From: Escherichia phage vB_EcoS_FFH_1
Length of the DNA: 64,000 bases
Sequence record: KJ190157
Strand: one strand, 5' to 3'
Every line of letters begins with the position of its first letter. The first letter of the stretch is position 1. The notes beneath the pieces were generated by a model that saw only the letters and a program-made list of their open reading frames with translations, made no database searches and was not told the DNA's origin. A program made the position numbers and the translations under genes. Shown here in pieces: positions 2,987-31,419 of the stretch.

Positions 2987-4128
2987 AAGAAATCTCCAAA
3001 TTCATTACCCAGATCTTTCAGAGTATCAGTAGAGGTCTCAGTTACCTGACCTACACGGTAGGCTGCACCAATCTGGATTTCTTGTGGAGCAGGCTGTAGA
3101 GAAGTAGTATCCAACCAGTTCATAATCCACGGAATAGGGTTTTTAGTGATTACTGGTAAGTGACTAGGCCATTCTACACCAATGTGCATAAATGCATTAC
3201 GCCCTACAAAGTACAAGTATTCTTCTAGAAGTTCTGCATTCAAACCAATCAGACTACGACCTTTGAAAATGAAATGACCCCATTCAATTTCAGTTTTCAG
3301 AGTTTTCAGGAGCTGTGCTGGTGCTTTAGCCACTGCTTCGTCTACCAGATCTTTGTCAAACTGCTGGAACATAATCTGGATGATTGCTTTGGACATCTGA
3401 GTGTGCAGAGCTTCATCTTTAGCGATTAATTGCAGATTTTTAGCAATACCTTGCAGAATATCGTTCTCTGCTAATGCAAAGGTACATGCAAAGGATGCGT
3501 AGAACTGCATTGCTTCCAGACCGTAGATTGCAAAATAAGCATCTAACAGTTTAGCCTGAGTTTCACGCTTAACTTCAGGGAACTCCGTTTCTGGGTATGT
3601 ATTGTCACCACGATGATCACGTACTGCGATGAAATACTGACCTAACTGGTACAGTTCATCGAATAGTTCAACAGAATCAGCGATGCGTGCGAATGCTTCT
3701 TGGTTTTTGGTTACAGAATCAATAAATTCTGCTGGATCAGTTAGCACATTACGAATAATATTGCTATAAGCACGACTGTGCAGATCTTCGAAGTAGCTCC
3801 ACTGCTTGAGCATACCTTCCAATTCTGGACGACTTACAAGCGGCATAATAGCTGCTTCAGGAGCACGACTGATGAAGGAATCTGTTTGAGTCTGCCATGC
3901 TAAGTTCAGGAGTGTAATTTCCTGAATTTCTCGTGGGAGATTAGGCCATTGTTTCTTATCTGCTTCCAGACTGATTTCAGTTTCAGTCCAAAATTGAGAG
4001 CGTTGCAGAAGTGCCAGACGTTCTAGTTCTGGATGTGCTACACGTACATAATCTGCGATACCTAGAGAATCTCCCAGGAAAAGGTCAGCGTTAGTATGAT
4101 CCCAATTCAGGTTTAGTAAAGTAGTCAT
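2983..4128 (-). CDS. nrdB: class I ribonucleotide reductase beta subunit (R2)
   Basis: 381 aa; ferritin-like R2 motifs (EAMQFYASFACTFALAEND); own TTGCTA-N17-TATAAT promoter and AGAGGA SD upstream. Confidence 0.9.
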   Translation of the reverse strand: MTTLLNLNWDHTNADLFLGDSLGIADYVRVAHPELERLALLQRSQFWTETEISLEADKKQWPNLPREIQEITLLNLAWQTQTDSFISRAPEAAIMPLVSRPELEGMLKQWSYFEDLHSRAYSNIIRNVLTDPAEFIDSVTKNQEAFARIADSVELFDELYQLGQYFIAVRDHRGDNTYPETEFPEVKRETQAKLLDAYFAIYGLEAMQFYASFACTFALAENDILQGIAKNLQLIAKDEALHTQMSKAIIQIMFQQFDKDLVDEAVAKAPAQLLKTLKTEIEWGHFIFKGRSLIGLNAELLEEYLYFVGRNAFMHIGVEWPSHLPVITKNPIPWIMNWLDTTSLQPAPQEIQIGAAYRVGQVTETSTDTLKDLGNEFGDFL

Positions 4129-16983: not shown

Positions 16984-17200
16984 AAAATGGGAAACAAGGA
17001 AGTTCCCAGTAAAAGAACGTAAAGTTCCTGTTTATGATACTTCGGAAAAGCTATGTAGGGTGGTACCGCATAGATTAGCTGGTATCCCTAACATATCCGA
17101 ATGGTTACTTAAACAACGGAAAACAAACGTGTCTCTTCGCATCGGCTTTGAGTTAGATAAAGTCTATGCTGAACTTGCTTCTTTGCTCAAGGAATCGTAA
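16958..17200 (+). CDS. hypothetical protein (80 aa)
   Basis: ORF overlapping the end of the 929-aa gene; no motif. Confidence 0.3.
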   Translation: MLEMTVKNKKWETRKFPVKERKVPVYDTSEKLCRVVPHRLAGIPNISEWLLKQRKTNVSLRIGFELDKVYAELASLLKES

Positions 17201-17208
17201 AAATTTAT

Positions 17209-17237
17209 TTGCATAGTTCAAAAAATTTCTGTATAAT
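17209..17237 (+). promoter_or_regulatory. early promoter nearly identical to T5 PN25 as remembered
   Basis: AAAATTTATTTGCAT...TTCTGTATAATAGATTCATAAATTTGAGAGAGGAGTT; -10 17232-17237. Confidence 0.7.
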
Positions 17238-17268
17238 AGATTCATAAATTTGAGAGAGGAGTTTAAAT

Positions 17269-17973
17269 ATGGCTGGTTCTCGCAGAAAGAAACATATCCA
17301 TGAAATCCCGGATGAAGTCTTTAAAAAAGTTATAGAGCATCTGGAGAACGGTGGTACTAAGAAAGCAGCATGTGAAATGCTTGGCGTATCATCCAACCCA
17401 ACTATGGAAAGGATGATAGAAGAGTGGCAAGATCGCCAAATTCAAGTTGCCGAGATGAAGAAAAAGAAACGTGGCACACTCATTGAAGGCATTGAGTTGG
17501 CCAACGTTATTGAACAGTATCTATCTGGCGATTCTTTTGAAGAGATTGCCGATCGTAATTACCGCTCTGTAGCAATGGTTAAATCTGTTCTGGAACGCTA
17601 TGGTGCTCTGCTTCGTTTGAACGATATTGTAGATCCATTGAATCCACCAATTATTCCTGATGATGCTGTAGCAGAAGAATTTGAGGTAGGTGAGCTTGTT
17701 TGGGTTCCTGGATACCAGTGTATCGGTGAAATCAAAAAAGCAATGGATACCCCTGTTGGTTGTTACCGTGTATGGCTTCTATCAGAAGGCAAACAACAGA
17801 ACGTTCATTATATGAATTATGAGTTGGCTTCTGTTAAACATCTGGAAAAGCTAGGGGTTGATGTAAAATCTCTAGGGTATAAGTGGACTCGTGAAGAAGT
17901 TATTACGTTGATTAACGAAGCTGTTAAGGCTGCCTTGAAACTTGATAAAGAAAAAGGAAAACGCCGTGAGTAG
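17269..17973 (+). CDS. helix-turn-helix protein, putative early regulator
   Basis: Downstream of near-PN25 promoter and GAGAGGAG SD; HTH-like segment TKKAACEMLGVS near N-terminus. Confidence 0.55.
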   Translation: MAGSRRKKHIHEIPDEVFKKVIEHLENGGTKKAACEMLGVSSNPTMERMIEEWQDRQIQVAEMKKKKRGTLIEGIELANVIEQYLSGDSFEEIADRNYRSVAMVKSVLERYGALLRLNDIVDPLNPPIIPDDAVAEEFEVGELVWVPGYQCIGEIKKAMDTPVGCYRVWLLSEGKQQNVHYMNYELASVKHLEKLGVDVKSLGYKWTREEVITLINEAVKAALKLDKEKGKRRE

Positions 17974-19450: not shown

Positions 19451-19479
19451 TTGCTTTCAACTCAGTTTTGTTATATAAT
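19451..19479 (+). promoter_or_regulatory. early promoter TTGCTT-N17-TATAAT + ATTTATATAAATTGATGAGAG box (ligase A)
   Basis: -35 19451-19456, -10 19474-19479. Confidence 0.6.
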
Positions 19480-19510
19480 ATTTATATAAATTGATGAGAG
19501 ATACAAATAA

Positions 19511-20625: not shown

Positions 20626-20654
20626 TTGCTAAATGCTTAAATACTTGCTATAAT
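20626..20654 (+). promoter_or_regulatory. early promoter TTGCTA-N17-TATAAT + ATTTATATAAATTGATAAGGAAG box (ligase B)
   Basis: -35 20626-20631, -10 20649-20654. Confidence 0.6.
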
Positions 20655-20684
20655 ATTTATATAAATTGATAAGGAAGAAATTTG

Positions 20685-27296: not shown

Positions 27297-27786
27297 TTTC
27301 AAATTGCCCGTATATGCTTTACGGGCTTTTGTATCAATTGAGCAAGAAGGTGATTATTCCGTAATTACAACAAGATATAATAAATATGTGCTAGATAACA
27401 GGAAGTTGCCTGGCACGTTTTCTCAACGTAGGCTTATTCTATTTGAGAAACGGAAAGAATTACCATACAAGCTCTATCCTATTAGGGGTAGAATATCAAT
27501 GTTGTCTCAATTAGTTGGGTCAAAGCGTAACCAATTTATAGATTCTGATGGAAATCTTATTAATTGGAAGAAAACTACGTTCTATGATGTTGTCACCTCT
27601 AAAGTTTTGCATTCAGCTAGAATTTATAATGGAAAGTACCAATGCTATGTGGCTAAAGTTCCTTATCCATTTGTACTATCCTATGTTCCAGCTTATATAA
27701 GCTATATTCTGGTAAATAATAGCCCTGTTATTTATCAAGTCCATCAAGAGGAGCCTGAAATTCCTAGACTTAGAATAAAATTATGA
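27289..27786 (+). CDS. hypothetical protein (165 aa)
   Basis: ORF between polymerase and helicase, overlapping both ends. Confidence 0.4.
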   Translation: MLDFKLPVYALRAFVSIEQEGDYSVITTRYNKYVLDNRKLPGTFSQRRLILFEKRKELPYKLYPIRGRISMLSQLVGSKRNQFIDSDGNLINWKKTTFYDVVTSKVLHSARIYNGKYQCYVAKVPYPFVLSYVPAYISYILVNNSPVIYQVHQEEPEIPRLRIKL

Positions 27787-29135
27787 AGGTTGTTATATCT
27801 AATAAAGCCTATTTCAAGCCCGATGATGAACTTTGGGATTATTGTAGTAAGCAAACCACTTATCATATAGAGACAATGACTAGTAAATACCCTATTATGT
27901 ATAAGAATAGTGGTGTTGTTGCCAAAGAGATTAAGTGGATTCCTATTACGCGTCTGGACTTACTGGATGCTAAAGGAGTAAAATACGAATTAGTCGATAA
28001 ACGCACATTAGCTCCGGTAGGTATACCAAAACCTAAGTTCAAGCTGCGTGAAGAAGATCAGCTTCCAATATACGAAGAATGCGATGATACCTGTATTATT
28101 AATGGTAAGCCTGGATTTGGTAAAACTATCCTAGCCCTTGCACTTGCGTATAAATTTGGCCAGAAAACTTTGGTAATTTGTACCAACACATCTATTCGTG
28201 AAATGTGGGCGGCAGAAGTTCGTAAATGGTTTGGGTTTGAACCAGGTATCATAGGTTCTGGGAAATACAATATTGATCCACCAATTGTGGTCAGTAATAT
28301 TCAAACAGTGAATAAACATGCGAATAATCTTTCTAAAGTATTCGGTACTGTTATAGTTGATGAAGTTCACCATTGTGTGGCTACAACTTTCACTAACTTC
28401 CTAGAAATATCATGTGCTCGCTATAAGATTGGGCTATCTGGAACATTAAAACGTAAAGATGGTCTACAAGTTATGTTCAAAGATTTCTTTGGATATAAGA
28501 TATTTAGCCCACCGGTTAATAATACTGTTGCACCTACAATCCATAGATACTCCGTACCTGTTGAGTTATCAGGGAACCAAAACGTACCATGGGCATTACG
28601 TGCTAACGATGTATATAATCATCCTGAATATCGAGAGAATATTATAAATCTAGCACATTTATATGTGAATATGGGGCATAAAGTACTCATTGTAAGTGAC
28701 AGAACAGAGTTAATCCAAACAGTACTAGAAGCTCTTGCGCAGCGTGGTGTTACAACATATGAAATTATAGGGGCAACTCACTTAGATGACCGATTAAAAA
28801 TTCAGGAAGATATAGCAAAAGGTGGACCTTGTGTACTTGCAGCAGCTCAAAGTATCTTCTCTGAAGGTATTTCCCTTAATGAGCTATCTTGTTTAATAAT
28901 GGGAAGCCTCATTAATAATGAATCTCTCATTGAACAGCTTGCAGGCCGTGTTCAACGTATTGTCGATGGTAAACTCGACCCTATTGTTGTGGATCTGATT
29001 ATGAAAGGTGGCACTGGACTAAGACAGGCTTCTGGACGTATGGCAGTATATCGTAACAACGGGTGGAAAACTATTACTATGACTCCAGAGAAAGCAGTTC
29101 AATTAGCTAAAATTGCATTTGGCAACAGCTTATAA
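27783..29135 (+). CDS. SF2 DNA helicase (DExH-box)
   Basis: Walker A GKPGFGKT, DEVHH box, C-terminal helicase motifs; 450 aa. Confidence 0.8.
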   Translation: MKVVISNKAYFKPDDELWDYCSKQTTYHIETMTSKYPIMYKNSGVVAKEIKWIPITRLDLLDAKGVKYELVDKRTLAPVGIPKPKFKLREEDQLPIYEECDDTCIINGKPGFGKTILALALAYKFGQKTLVICTNTSIREMWAAEVRKWFGFEPGIIGSGKYNIDPPIVVSNIQTVNKHANNLSKVFGTVIVDEVHHCVATTFTNFLEISCARYKIGLSGTLKRKDGLQVMFKDFFGYKIFSPPVNNTVAPTIHRYSVPVELSGNQNVPWALRANDVYNHPEYRENIINLAHLYVNMGHKVLIVSDRTELIQTVLEALAQRGVTTYEIIGATHLDDRLKIQEDIAKGGPCVLAAAQSIFSEGISLNELSCLIMGSLINNESLIEQLAGRVQRIVDGKLDPIVVDLIMKGGTGLRQASGRMAVYRNNGWKTITMTPEKAVQLAKIAFGNSL

Positions 29136-29147
29136 ATGATGTATAAT
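29119..29147 (+). promoter_or_regulatory. early promoter (TTGGCA-N17-TATAAT + ACATAAATTTGAGAGAG box), first of tandem pair
   Basis: -10 29142-29147; conserved downstream box. Confidence 0.55.
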
Positions 29148-29218
29148 ATATACATAAATTTGAGAGAGAAAGTTTCGGATTGATAAGAAAGTCCAAAGCA
29201 GAAAAATAAAAATTTTAG

Positions 29219-29248
29219 TTGCTAAATTCTCTCGAAATATAGTATAAT
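29219..29248 (+). promoter_or_regulatory. early promoter (TTGCTA-N18-TATAAT + ACATAAATTCGAGGAG box), second of tandem pair
   Basis: -10 29243-29248; ~100 bp after the first copy. Confidence 0.55.
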
Positions 29249-29631
29249 ATATACATAAATTCGAGGAGAAAACAAAATTAAATTCTTCAATTATGAAAAG
29301 CTATACTTATTAGCTAGAGGAAATTCCGACCTAATTATTAAGCTATTCAAAAGAATGCTTACAGAGCCTGATGCTCACCAATTATTGGTAGGTTCCTCAT
29401 TCATTTTGAATGAATCAACAATAGTTGATAATCCAAATAAATTGTCTAATAGACAACTGGCAGAATATCTAGGAATTTTAAGTCTACGAAATTATGCCGA
29501 ATACAAGTTTACAAACGATCCTAGTTTGGACATACAATATGTTCCAGTATGGATACCACGTTTAGTAATCGACACTAACCCACTAATCGCAATTAACAAA
29601 TCGAAATTAATCTTTAAAGAGGAAATAAAAT

Positions 29632-30405
29632 ATGGCTAAGTCTTGGGGCGAAACTACTGGCGGTTCTAACGATAAAATCGAATTCCTGAAGTTCAACAAC
29701 GGTATCACTCGTGTTCGTATCGTTTCTGGTGTTCTTCCACGTTATGTCTATTGGCTGACTAATAAAGAGGGTAGCGTAGCTCCTTTCGAATGTCTTCGTT
29801 TCAACCGTGACAAAGAGAGCTTTGTTCGTGGTAAAGCTGATCCGGTTCATGAGATGGGCTTCTTTGAGAAGGAGCTGGATAAAGATGGTAATCGGGTTCC
29901 GCTGAAACCGAAGAAAAACTATATCGCTTTTGTTATTGACCGTTCTGATAACAAACTGAAAGTAATGGAAGTCAAGGCTACTATTCTGAAAGGCATCCAG
30001 TCTATCATGAAGCAGTTGAACCTGGCAACTCCGTTTGATATTGATATTTCTATCGAGAAAAAAGGTAAAGGTTTCGATACTGAGTATGATGTACAGCAGA
30101 TTGCTGCTATGCAGTTCCAGATTAAGCTGCAAGATCCTAACAGTGCGGAATCTAAGCAATATGCTGCGGATGTAGATCTGATCGGTGAAGCTATGTGTGA
30201 TGAAGATGGCGACATCATTAAGTTCGAAAAAGTTCCTTCTCTGGAACAAACCTATCCGGTTCCTACCTATGAAGAGCAGAAAGAAGCAATTCTAGCCTTC
30301 ATGGAAGGTCGTGAGAATAAAGATGATGATGCCAAATCTGGTAATAGCAATGCAGGTTCCCAGAAAGGTATTGACTCAGAAGCTGCAAGCGATCTGGACG
30401 ACTAA
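29632..30405 (+). CDS. abundant early protein with acidic C-terminal tail, candidate ssDNA-binding protein
   Basis: Strong codon bias, AGAGGA SD, tandem upstream promoters, terminator downstream; acidic tail ...EAASDLDD. Confidence 0.45.
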   Translation: MAKSWGETTGGSNDKIEFLKFNNGITRVRIVSGVLPRYVYWLTNKEGSVAPFECLRFNRDKESFVRGKADPVHEMGFFEKELDKDGNRVPLKPKKNYIAFVIDRSDNKLKVMEVKATILKGIQSIMKQLNLATPFDIDISIEKKGKGFDTEYDVQQIAAMQFQIKLQDPNSAESKQYAADVDLIGEAMCDEDGDIIKFEKVPSLEQTYPVPTYEEQKEAILAFMEGRENKDDDAKSGNSNAGSQKGIDSEAASDLDD

Positions 30406-30412
30406 TAAATAG

Positions 30413-30436
30413 AGGGGCTTCGGCCCCTTTCTTTTT
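30413..30436 (+). terminator. intrinsic terminator after SSB-like gene
   Basis: AGGGGC-TTCG-GCCCCT hairpin followed by TTCTTTTT. Confidence 0.7.
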
Positions 30437-30441
30437 AACCA

Positions 30442-31419
30442 ATGAGAATATTATTTAGTGCTGATCATCATATCAAACTAGGACAAGATAAAGTTCCAAA
30501 GGAATGGCAGAAGCGTCGTTTCCTGATGCTAGGAGAACGGTTAAATGATATATTCCATAATCATAACTGTGATCTTCATATTGCTGGTGGTGATATACTT
30601 GATGTTGCCGACCCGTCGTCAGAAGAAATAGAACTGCTTGAACAGTTCATGTCAAGACTCGACCATCCAGGAAAAATCTTTACTGGAAATCATGAAATGC
30701 TAACTAAAACCATTTCATGTCTATATCATTATGCAGGAGTTATTAATAAAGTAACTAGTGGGAAGTGGGAAGTAATTACCAAACCATATCGTTCCCCTGA
30801 ATTTGATATTGTTCCGTATGATGAGATTCATAAACCTAAGTGGAAACCATCTGAATCAAAACTATGTTTCACGCATGTTCGTGGTGAAATCCCTCCGCAT
30901 GTAAAACCAGAAATTGATCTAACTAAGTATAACTGTTATGATACTGTAATTGCTGGCGATTTACATTCTTATACTAATAGTCAGACTATCGGATCTACTA
31001 GACTTCTCTACCCAGGGTCTCCATTAACTACATCGTTCCATAGAGAACGCACAAAAGGTACAAATGGTTGCTTTATCGTTGATACCGACACATTAAAAGT
31101 AGAATGGATTGAACTAGGTGATTTACCACAACTGATTCGTAGAACAATCGGAGCCGGTGAAGAGATGGAACCTAGTGATTATGATCGTGTAGTCTATGAA
31201 GTTACTGGTGACGTTGTTCAATTAAAGTCTATCAAAGACTCTGATTTATTAGATAAGAAGATTAACCATCGAGTTACTAAAGACGCTAAGTTAAATCTTG
31301 TTGATCTTGATATGTTAGGTGAACTTGAACTTTACTTCCGTGAAGTCGAGAAGCTATCTCAAGGCGACATTGATAGAATCTTGGCTAGAGCTGCGAAATA
31401 TGTCAAAGATTACAATTAA
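30442..31419 (+). CDS. SbcD/Mre11-like nuclease (calcineurin-like phosphoesterase)
   Basis: Phosphoesterase motifs SADHH, GGDILDV, GNHE in order; 325 aa. Confidence 0.8.
   Translation: MRILFSADHHIKLGQDKVPKEWQKRRFLMLGERLNDIFHNHNCDLHIAGGDILDVADPSSEEIELLEQFMSRLDHPGKIFTGNHEMLTKTISCLYHYAGVINKVTSGKWEVITKPYRSPEFDIVPYDEIHKPKWKPSESKLCFTHVRGEIPPHVKPEIDLTKYNCYDTVIAGDLHSYTNSQTIGSTRLLYPGSPLTTSFHRERTKGTNGCFIVDTDTLKVEWIELGDLPQLIRRTIGAGEEMEPSDYDRVVYEVTGDVVQLKSIKDSDLLDKKINHRVTKDAKLNLVDLDMLGELELYFREVEKLSQGDIDRILARAAKYVKDYN

Follow-up and report, generated by a model that had tools for sequence, protein, structure and literature searches.

The interval between the D10 helicase gene and the D11 gene for an SSB-like protein in this T5-like phage (Tequintavirus; the window, i.e. 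the whole 64,000-nucleotide stretch analysed, is 98-99% identical to Tequintavirus genomes) is probably part of an ordinary early bicistronic operon, in which the tandem promoters P31A and P31B precede the small gene T5.125, with a probable AUU start, followed by D11 and a terminator. The T5 reference annotation (AY543070 / NC_005859) lists P31A, P31B, T5.125, D11 and the terminator in this order, and the arrangement is textbook phage gene organisation that, being already annotated in T5, by itself opens no new question. The promoters and operon layout were known already; what the analysis adds is a correction to the start of T5.125, which most likely begins at the non-canonical codon ATT 29277 and encodes 120 residues rather than 94, leaving the database versions 26 codons short. 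The features concerned are:

27783-29135, + strand: D10 SF2 helicase gene (open reading frame list; Pfam ResIII and Helicase_C; PHROG 16; T5.124/D10 in AY543070)
29119-29154, + strand: predicted distal promoter, T5 P31A (-35 TTGGCA at 29119-29124, 17-nt spacer, -10 TATAAT at 29142-29147)
29219-29255, + strand: predicted proximal promoter, T5 P31B (-35 TTGCTA at 29219-29224, 18-nt spacer, -10 TATAAT at 29243-29248)
29263-29269, + strand: Shine-Dalgarno (SD) sequence GAGGAGA for T5.125, 7 nt before ATT 29277
29277-29639, + strand: T5.125 family gene in its revised, most likely extent, 120 codons from ATT 29277 (database version 29355-29639, 94 aa)
29618-29625, + strand: D11 SD AAGAGGAA, inside the 3' end of T5.125 (anti-SD duplex -6.0 kcal/mol, 7 nt spacing)
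29632-30405, + strand: D11, SSB-like protein of 257 aa (PHROG 1607 'single strand DNA binding protein', E 7e-106)
30411-30437, + strand: intrinsic terminator (8-bp stem with 5 GC pairs, 4-nt loop, T-run), also annotated in T5 and HASG4

The first-pass annotation had described the sequence before D11 as a leader of ~400 nt holding only a weak 94-aa open reading frame. That frame is indeed in the open reading frame list at 29355-29639, and, as had been stated, its ATG lacks an SD and its stop overlaps the next start. It is, however, T5.125, a member of PHROG 4258 (profile match E 2.4e-48), and most of the supposed leader encodes a conserved protein, most likely of 120 residues from 29277. Searches with tblastn gave matches in 904 phage records, at identities down to 33-50%, and the family forms 277 representative clusters in a library of 1.8 billion proteins. 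The pN/pS ratio for codons 27-120 is 0.095, i.e. these codons are under purifying selection, and the T5.125-family gene always lies directly upstream of, or overlaps, the SSB-like gene. On this evolutionary evidence T5.125 is probably translated. The literature searched gave no proteomic or functional data for T5.125 or D11.

The T5.125 frame is open from 29259. From the annotated ATG it can be followed back for a further 26 codons, as far as ATT 29277, with no in-frame ATG, GTG or TTG between the upstream stop and Met27. Orthologues are 116-122 aa long (~120 aa outside Tequintavirus, including the 277 distant cluster representatives). They open with M-x-F-F-D/N-Y-E-K, and their ATG or GTG start falls at the position of ATT 29277 in the window; among the distant homologues listed, ~120/150 align from profile positions 1-11. 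ATT occupies the start position in 29/29 Tequintavirus sequences, an invariance that could reflect shared ancestry in such closely related genomes (95-99%), and Epseptimavirus has ATG there. Between genera, codons 2-26 show a pN/pS of 0.12; within the ATT clade they carry five synonymous changes against one non-synonymous (six substitutions in all). Just before ATT the sequences differ in the length of an A run (A4/A5/A6), whereas after it they have no indels, and the spacing from SD to ATT is 7-9 nt across the sequence variants. The anti-SD duplex predicted for GAGGAGA (-8.9 kcal/mol) is the strongest among 13 sites compared, whereas that at the annotated ATG 29355 is -0.9 kcal/mol, i.e. no SD; the lack of an SD noted earlier would thus have arisen because the start codon was called too far downstream. 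In an independent lineage (L088) ATT stands at the same codon behind the SD AAGGAG, and the nearest relatives of this lineage have a Met-start product (P0014) or TTG (L089). An AlphaFold model of the 120-residue protein has a pLDDT of 93.8, with residues 1-30 at 96-97 and one strand and two helices within residues 2-29. ATT 29277 lies ~22 nt after the probable P31B start site, so that the untranslated 5' region would be ~22 nt long in transcripts from P31B and ~123 nt long in those from P31A. All public Tequintavirus annotations use the 94-aa form, because gene callers ignore ATT as a start, and a collection of 15 billion proteins does not contain the 120-aa T5-type sequence. No ribosome-profiling or protein N-terminus data for the T5.125 locus were found in the literature searched.

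The putative initiation signals vary across the T5.125 family. AUU at the start position would have had at least two origins, one in Tequintavirus and one in the L088 lineage; AUA may serve in a metagenomic lineage, and GUG or UUG occurs in others. The putative non-AUG starts go with the strongest SDs. In Klebsiella-type phages and some metagenome lineages the start codon lies only 0-4 nt after the -10 box.

The two promoters about 100 bp apart that the first-pass annotation had placed before the SSB-like gene correspond to P31A and P31B, which are joined by a 31-nt direct repeat at a spacing of 101 bp and have in common an identical 20-mer, GTATAATATATACATAAATT. In a sigma-70 promoter scan they score 11/12 (P31A) and 10/12 (P31B) against consensus; from its spacing, P31A would start transcription at A29154, and P31B would do so at A29255. 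Within the last codons of D10 lie the distal promoter's UP-like and -35 elements, and the D10 stop TAA (29133-29135) falls between the -35 and -10 elements of this promoter. What makes the promoters believable is the 20-mer they have in common and the fact that they are kept in other genera, rather than the generic scan score: a generic scan of the window returned 23 sites against 18.6 +/- 4.8 in shuffles, i.e. not above chance, whilst the GTATAATATATACATAAATT pattern at <=3 mismatches occurs five times in the window where chance predicts 0.03. Three further copies of the early promoter family lie in the window, at 17231, 19473 and 20648. Early-class T5 promoters have an ATATT discriminator motif after the -10 element (Klimuk et al. 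2020, PMC7472727; the T5 promoters tested there were others than P31A/P31B). Both promoters here read TATAAT-ATATAC, their discriminator ATATA matching this motif at 4/5 positions (PMC7472727), and the copies at 19473 and 20648 carry ATATT itself. By their hexamers and spacers P31A and P31B are predicted sigma-70 (host RNA polymerase) promoters, probably of the T5 early class. The literature searched gave no transcription start-site data for either, in vivo or in vitro.

P31A is conserved in Epseptimavirus, Proteus PM135, Pectobacterium DU_PP_V and others. By scan, 11/14 tabulated lineages have a promoter with 0-35 nt between the end of its -10 and the T5.125-family start codon; in six of those a second promoter lies ~90-100 nt farther upstream, and in Klebsiella one lies at ~190 nt. 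The tandem pair, which recurs in several other genera of the family, is found by the scan in Epseptimavirus, Klebsiella, Proteus, Vibrio VCPH phages and one metagenome contig; another such contig has three promoters.

A hairpin can be drawn between the two promoters:

29172-29199, + strand: predicted hairpin GTTTCGGATT-N8-AGTCCAAAGC, followed by an A/T-rich tract (29200-29218) upstream of the proximal -35

In T5 and Epseptimavirus it has a fold energy of -14.0 kcal/mol; in the window, where a G-to-A change makes it less stable, the value is -8.0 kcal/mol. In Klebsiella phages the 3' arm is retained and the 5' arm differs. The hairpin sequence is conserved, but its substitutions break pairs, and no compensatory changes or covariation were found. 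It was rejected as a terminator, A-rich sequence coming after it. Two short reading frames were likewise set aside: the mini-ORF MKSYTY at 29293 lies in a different frame and owes its ATG, which Epseptimavirus lacks, to Tyr-Glu codons, and the frame of a TTG ORF after P31A is not conserved in Klebsiella phages.

Downstream, the last T5.125 codons (K-E-E) encode the D11 SD, and the T5.125 stop overlaps the D11 start (ATGGCTAA); in 6/6 lineages with an intact small gene, this gene and the SSB-like gene overlap or are separated by a gap of <=2 nt. No promoter or terminator was found between T5.125 and D11, and the terminator follows D11, a layout typical of two translationally coupled genes in one operon. 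The D11 product, whose gene T5 records name D11 (T5.126) or SSB, has an acidic C-terminus (...SDLDD) and gave no Pfam, NCBIfam or PDB sequence match. CTG serves for 11/15 of its Leu codons, against 1/18 in the upstream gene. High D11 expression is plausible from this codon bias and the gene's own SD, and to that extent the earlier suggestion of very high expression is retained, without the long regulatory leader with which it had been coupled.

These elements suggest the following scheme. The two sigma-70 promoters would fire in tandem, from ~29154 and ~29255, the proximal transcript having a 5'UTR of ~22 nt with the strong SD GAGGAGA. Translation of T5.125 would begin at AUU 29277 and give a 120-residue protein. 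With the D11 SD inside the last T5.125 codons and the T5.125 stop overlapping the D11 ATG, both proteins would be made from one mRNA that ends at the terminator. A weak T5.125 start, set against the canonical start and optimised codons of D11, may then keep the small protein scarce and the SSB-like protein abundant; IF3 may have a part in T5.125 control.

Other readings of the start codon have to be weighed against initiation at ATT 29277. The database model may be right, i.e. the ancestral ATG may have been lost, leaving 26 codons as an untranslated relic and a truncated 94-residue protein made from AUG 29355, a canonical start that is used in all public annotations and encodes a methionine (Met27) present in the T5, Epseptimavirus and Klebsiella lineages. 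Met27 is, however, not conserved family-wide, and the truncation would strip one strand and two helices from a compact predicted fold; moreover, the internal AUG is without an SD, yet a strong SD has been retained before ATT, and codons 2-26 hold no stop or frameshift and change mostly synonymously. We consider this model improbable. Production of both forms, with a minor 120-residue protein from AUU and a 94-residue protein from the internal AUG, would accord with the frequency of internal starts in phage genes, and sequence alone is compatible with either start, but the missing SD at that AUG and the many orthologues lacking Met at this position make such dual initiation highly improbable.

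The leader proposed by the first-pass annotation can be put in a stronger form, in which ~400 nt are an untranslated regulatory region through which the SSB-like protein regulates itself in the manner of T4 gp32, and the 94-aa frame is spurious. The annotated ATG without SD would fit this, as would the region just before the D11 start, which is rich in A and U and for the most part single-stranded in the predicted fold; shuffled sequences fold slightly less well than the whole transcript (z = -2.3). The value for the P31A leader is z = -2.9, partly due to pairing between the two promoter repeats, and both scores are weak. An Rfam scan of 28900-30500 at E <= 1 gave two chance-level matches only, neither in the promoter-to-gene region, and the one conserved hairpin shows no covariation. 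Coding conservation contradicts the idea of autoregulation through a leader, the upstream sequence being a conserved family under purifying selection whose product has a confident predicted fold, behind a probable 5'UTR of only ~22 nt. A regulatory leader of this length is in our view scarcely credible. The first-pass annotation had itself contrasted its leader with a conserved, translated frame in an ordinary two-gene operon, and it is the latter that is found, as far as sequence can tell. A separate question is whether one promoter alone is active, the other being a repeat left by duplication or gene conversion. AY587007 labels the distal copy merely 'repeat c copy 7' ('promoter P31A' in AY543070 and NC_005859) and the proximal copy 'putative early promoter T5P38' ('promoter P31B' in the T5 reference); the scan finds a single promoter in Pectobacterium phage DU_PP_V and in one further locus (L040), and the identical 20-mer could mean a recent duplication. 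Against this, in Tequintavirus and Epseptimavirus the -10 of both copies matches consensus, the -35 nearly does so and the spacing is right, the Proteus and Vibrio copies have diverged from each other and both still score as promoters, and where a homing endonuclease gene lies upstream, sequence homology picks up again at the distal copy's UP/-35. A single active promoter therefore appears unlikely, and two tandem early promoters remain the preferred reading.

The immediate consequence would be an annotation correction, as more than 300 public contigs carry the 94-aa product without 26 conserved residues. If AUU initiation is true, it would add a phage example to a very short list of AUU-started genes, and would offer a handle on how T5 sets the ratio of the T5.125 product to its SSB-like partner. 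Rather more speculatively, weak or unusual initiation in the T5.125 family may have been selected, possibly as an IF3-sensitive means of keeping the ratio of small to SSB-like protein low, and the small protein may be an accessory factor of replication or recombination whose fold differs from every solved structure; we offer this tentatively, and think it somewhat doubtful.

Several known systems invite comparison. T4 gene 32 is subject to translational autoregulation through its 5' leader, and resembles D11 as an SSB-type gene whose expression has to be high and balanced and whose start follows an AU-rich stretch; it differs in that the sequence upstream of D11 is coding and not leader, with no pseudoknot or conserved RNA structure found there by Rfam or folding. 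The closest parallel is the phage T5 locus itself, which has the same order (D10 helicase, two promoters, small ORF, D11, terminator) and in which the small ORF is given as 94 aa from the internal ATG, where the evidence here favours 120 codons from ATT. The promoters share with the T5 early promoter family the same TATAAT, a TTGC-type -35, an A/T-rich upstream tract and an AT-rich discriminator, together with the shared CATAAATT...purine-rich initial transcribed region. They also resemble PN25, 57/70 positions being identical to what we take to be its sequence. AUU is an inefficient initiator in E. coli, where infC (IF3) and pcnB are AUU-initiated genes. T5.125 differs from these in being a phage gene whose use of AUU is predicted from sequence, and is like them in having AUU where orthologues have AUG, a functional-looking SD before it, and an expected low or regulated level of translation.

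Nucleotide comparison of positions 28900-30500 of the window returned matches in 442 phage records, 205 of which were 95-99% identical to it; all of these were T5-like Tequintaviruses, with vB_EcoS_HASG4 (98.9% identity) the closest record. The locus is arranged as follows.

Features of the locus (window positions)
27783-29135, D10 SF2 helicase gene
29119-29147, distal promoter P31A (TTGGCA, 17-nt spacer, TATAAT; consensus score 11/12)
29136-29276, intergenic region with the flagged promoters
29172-29199, hairpin between P31A and P31B
29219-29248, proximal promoter P31B (TTGCTA, 18-nt spacer, TATAAT; consensus score 10/12)
29355-29639, small ORF (T5.125), annotated form
29632-30405, D11
30411-30430, hairpin terminator
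from 30442, SbcD-like D12

The first-pass annotation had treated the approximately 400 nt preceding D11, the gene for an SSB-like protein, as a leader containing only a weak ORF of 94 aa. This reading is wrong: the stretch holds a conserved gene, T5.125, under purifying selection (pN/pS 0.095 for codons 27-120, Tequintavirus versus Epseptimavirus) and, as far as sequence analysis can establish, the arrangement is that of an ordinary operon. The ORF matches PHROG 4258 (E 2.4e-48), with coverage limited to profile positions 27-120 of 120, and tblastn identified it in 904 phage records, with relatives in Klebsiella (68%), Pectobacterium (58%), Vibrio (46-54%) and Aeromonas (33%) phages. Searched in full with an HMM, a library of 1.8 billion representatives gave 277 clusters matching the family, nearly all of them stand-alone proteins of 100-140 aa. 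In all lineages inspected the SSB-like gene directly follows it, a constant linkage that does no more than suggest a part in replication or recombination; T5.125 had no relative in Pfam, NCBIfam or PDB, and no significant neighbour in a structure search. A distant homologue (L087, 44-1037 of an ENA ERZ27282971 contig; 139 aa, profile E 3e-13) overlaps by 14 nt a following gene that is homologous to D11 (E 1e-14; 45% identity over 64 aa), and the linkage therefore reaches well beyond the named Demerecviridae; upstream of this small gene are TTGACA and, after a 17-nt spacer, TATAAT, whose last T is where the ATG begins. The copy in Aeromonas phage TS3 (L010 1411-1587) ends after 58 aa, and that of L055 carries an A-run frameshift relative to the otherwise identical L046.

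Orthologues outside Tequintavirus are 116-122 aa long and begin M-x-F-F-D/N-Y-E-K. In the window the T5.125 frame is open from 29259, and the residues before the annotated Met (Met27) read I-K-F-F-N-Y-E-K-L-Y-L-L-A-R-G-N-S-D-L-I-I-K-L-F-K-R; the codon aligned with the orthologues' ATG is ATT, at 29277, and no in-frame ATG, GTG or TTG occurs in the window between the upstream stop and Met27. GAGGAGA, 7 nt before this ATT, gives an anti-SD duplex of -8.9 kcal/mol, the strongest among 13 sites compared; the annotated ATG, correctly described earlier as having no SD, gives only -0.9 kcal/mol. ATT was found in 29/29 Tequintavirus sequences examined (the window, 21 IMG/VR contigs and 7 metagenome contigs), and ATG in all Epseptimavirus sequences, in an otherwise identical context, ACAAAAAT(G/T)AAATTCTT.

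The A-run directly 5' of the ATT varies in length (A4, A5 or A6) and no indels occur after it, which marks the change from non-coding to coding sequence at this point. Codons 2-26 show a pN/pS of 0.12 between Tequintavirus and Epseptimavirus and, inside the ATT clade, five synonymous changes against one non-synonymous (p about 0.002 versus a neutral 21:79, by our own binomial estimate from site counts), the latter being D/N, both residues of which occur elsewhere in the family. The N-terminus was invariant in the seven extra metagenome sequences, several of which carried substitutions further on. In an AlphaFold2 model of the 120-residue protein (pLDDT 93.8, pTM 0.88) residues 1-30 form the most confident block and are predicted to contribute one strand and two helices to a compact domain. 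Of the 150 distant homologues listed, about 120 have alignments that begin within profile positions 1-11, in most cases at position 1 or 2 and within the first few residues of the homologue itself. A collection of 15 billion proteins lacks the 120-aa T5-type sequence, whether M or I is taken as its first residue; the 94-aa form is on record from several hundred contigs. The one new point to emerge here concerns the operon's first gene: because its start is probably AUU, its annotation is probably wrong across Tequintavirus.

An ATT also occupies the start-equivalent codon, 7 nt after AAGGAG, in L088, a distant and separate T5-like lineage (2993-3285 of a Logan SRR23015428 contig; protein 57% identical). 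The two ATT lineages lie apart in a neighbour-joining tree, and the nearest relatives of L088 have a Met-start product (P0014) and TTG (L089). Gene callers again shorten the L088 product to 94 aa; for Proteus phage PM135 (L058 1664-2020) the annotation gives 92 aa, despite an ORF of 118 aa that begins with ATG. In the distant homologue L053 (1201-1542, IMG/VR 3300028829_003282) the equivalent codon is ATA, after GAGGGGAAG, and the sole canonical in-frame upstream start (TTG) overlaps the predicted -10 region; ATA is a tentative candidate start, held at low confidence because the locus is a single short contig. Across lineages, non-AUG starts pair with strong SDs (-6.9 to -8.9 kcal/mol), and most AUG starts with weak ones (-1.4 to -3.2 kcal/mol, with two exceptions at -6.4 and -8.7). 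The start codon follows the proximal TATAAT by only 0-4 nt in some lineages, among them Klebsiella-type phages and two metagenome lineages (L006 1311, ATG, 4 nt; L048 1195, ATG, 0 nt; L089 ~101, TTG, 1 nt), such that proximal transcripts would be leaderless or begin inside the small gene; in the latter case this promoter would serve the SSB-like gene alone. These patterns suggest that the small gene tolerates, or has been selected for, weak or special initiation.

The D11 ATG overlaps the T5.125 stop, as the first-pass annotation had it, and its SD (-6.0 kcal/mol) lies within conserved K-E-E codons of T5.125. At 29600-29639 the conserved C-terminus (...LIFKEEIKYG) doubles as the D11 ribosome-binding site, since K-E-E is encoded by AAAGAGGAA, and its conservation may reflect protein and ribosome-binding constraints together. 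Codon use differs between the genes (Leu as CTG, 11/15 in D11 versus 1/18 upstream; Arg as CGT or CGC, 8/9 versus 1/5), consistent with D11 being expressed far more strongly from the mRNA that the two share.

RNA family scan and folding of the untranslated parts of the locus gave no RNA family and no convincing structure. The inter-promoter hairpin is weaker in the window (-8.0 kcal/mol, versus -14.0 in T5 and Epseptimavirus) because of a G-to-A change; its sequence is conserved, but no covariation or compensatory changes were found among the lineages compared. In Klebsiella phages the 3' arm (GTCCGAAGCAGAAAAATAAAAA) is retained and the 5' arm is new and lies closer to it; the hairpin found at this position in Vibrio VCPH is unrelated.

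Both of the promoter copies reported about 100 bp apart are present, joined by a 31-nt direct repeat at 101-bp spacing. The tandem feature is real, yet already annotated in T5 records: AY543070 and NC_005859 label 'promoter P31A' and 'promoter P31B', then T5.125 (hypothetical), T5.126 (D11; SSB in RefSeq) and a terminator, and in AY587007 the two are 'repeat c copy 7' (distal) and 'putative early promoter T5P38' (proximal). A generic promoter scan was by itself not above chance (23 sites versus 18.6 +/- 4.8), and the case rests on common motif and conservation. The two share an identical 20-mer, GTATAATATATACATAAATT, which has five occurrences in the window at <=3 mismatches where 0.03 would be expected; the remaining copies (17231, 19473 and 20648, all + strand) each have an ATG 19-21 nt downstream, preceded by a purine-rich stretch, and the repeat is therefore a promoter-family signature and not only a local duplication. 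A promoter with its -10 ending 0-35 nt before the T5.125-family gene was found by scan in 11 of 14 tabulated lineages. Tequintavirus, Epseptimavirus, Proteus PM135, Vibrio VCPH and a number of metagenome contigs have another promoter ~90-100 nt 5' of this one; in Klebsiella phages the distance is ~190 nt, and just one promoter is present in Pectobacterium DU_PP_V and L040. In several Epseptimaviruses (H71-H77; L031, L037, ~1000-1040) a homing or HNH endonuclease gene separates the D10 helicase from the pair, and window homology restarts exactly at AAAATTGCATTTGGCAAC (UP/-35 of the distal promoter).

The literature searched yielded no start-site data for P31A or P31B. With initiation placed at the A 7 nt past each -10, the inferred starts are 29154 and 29255; transcripts from these would carry T5.125 after 5'UTRs of about 123 nt (distal) and 22 nt (proximal), with D11 translated via its own SD. 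Positions 17181-17300, which include the 17231 copy, contain a further promoter of the family (GTATAATAGATTCATAAATTTGAGAGAGGAGTTTAAATATG), matching at 57 of 70 positions, and identical from the -10 box onward, what we take to be the PN25 sequence; the + strand copies at 19473-19492 and 20648-20667 are two more of the same class (TATAATATTTATATAAATTGAT...). The latter two, ~20 nt before their ATGs, have the ATATT discriminator common to T5 early promoters (Klimuk et al. 2020, PMC7472727), whereas P31A and P31B both read ATATA.
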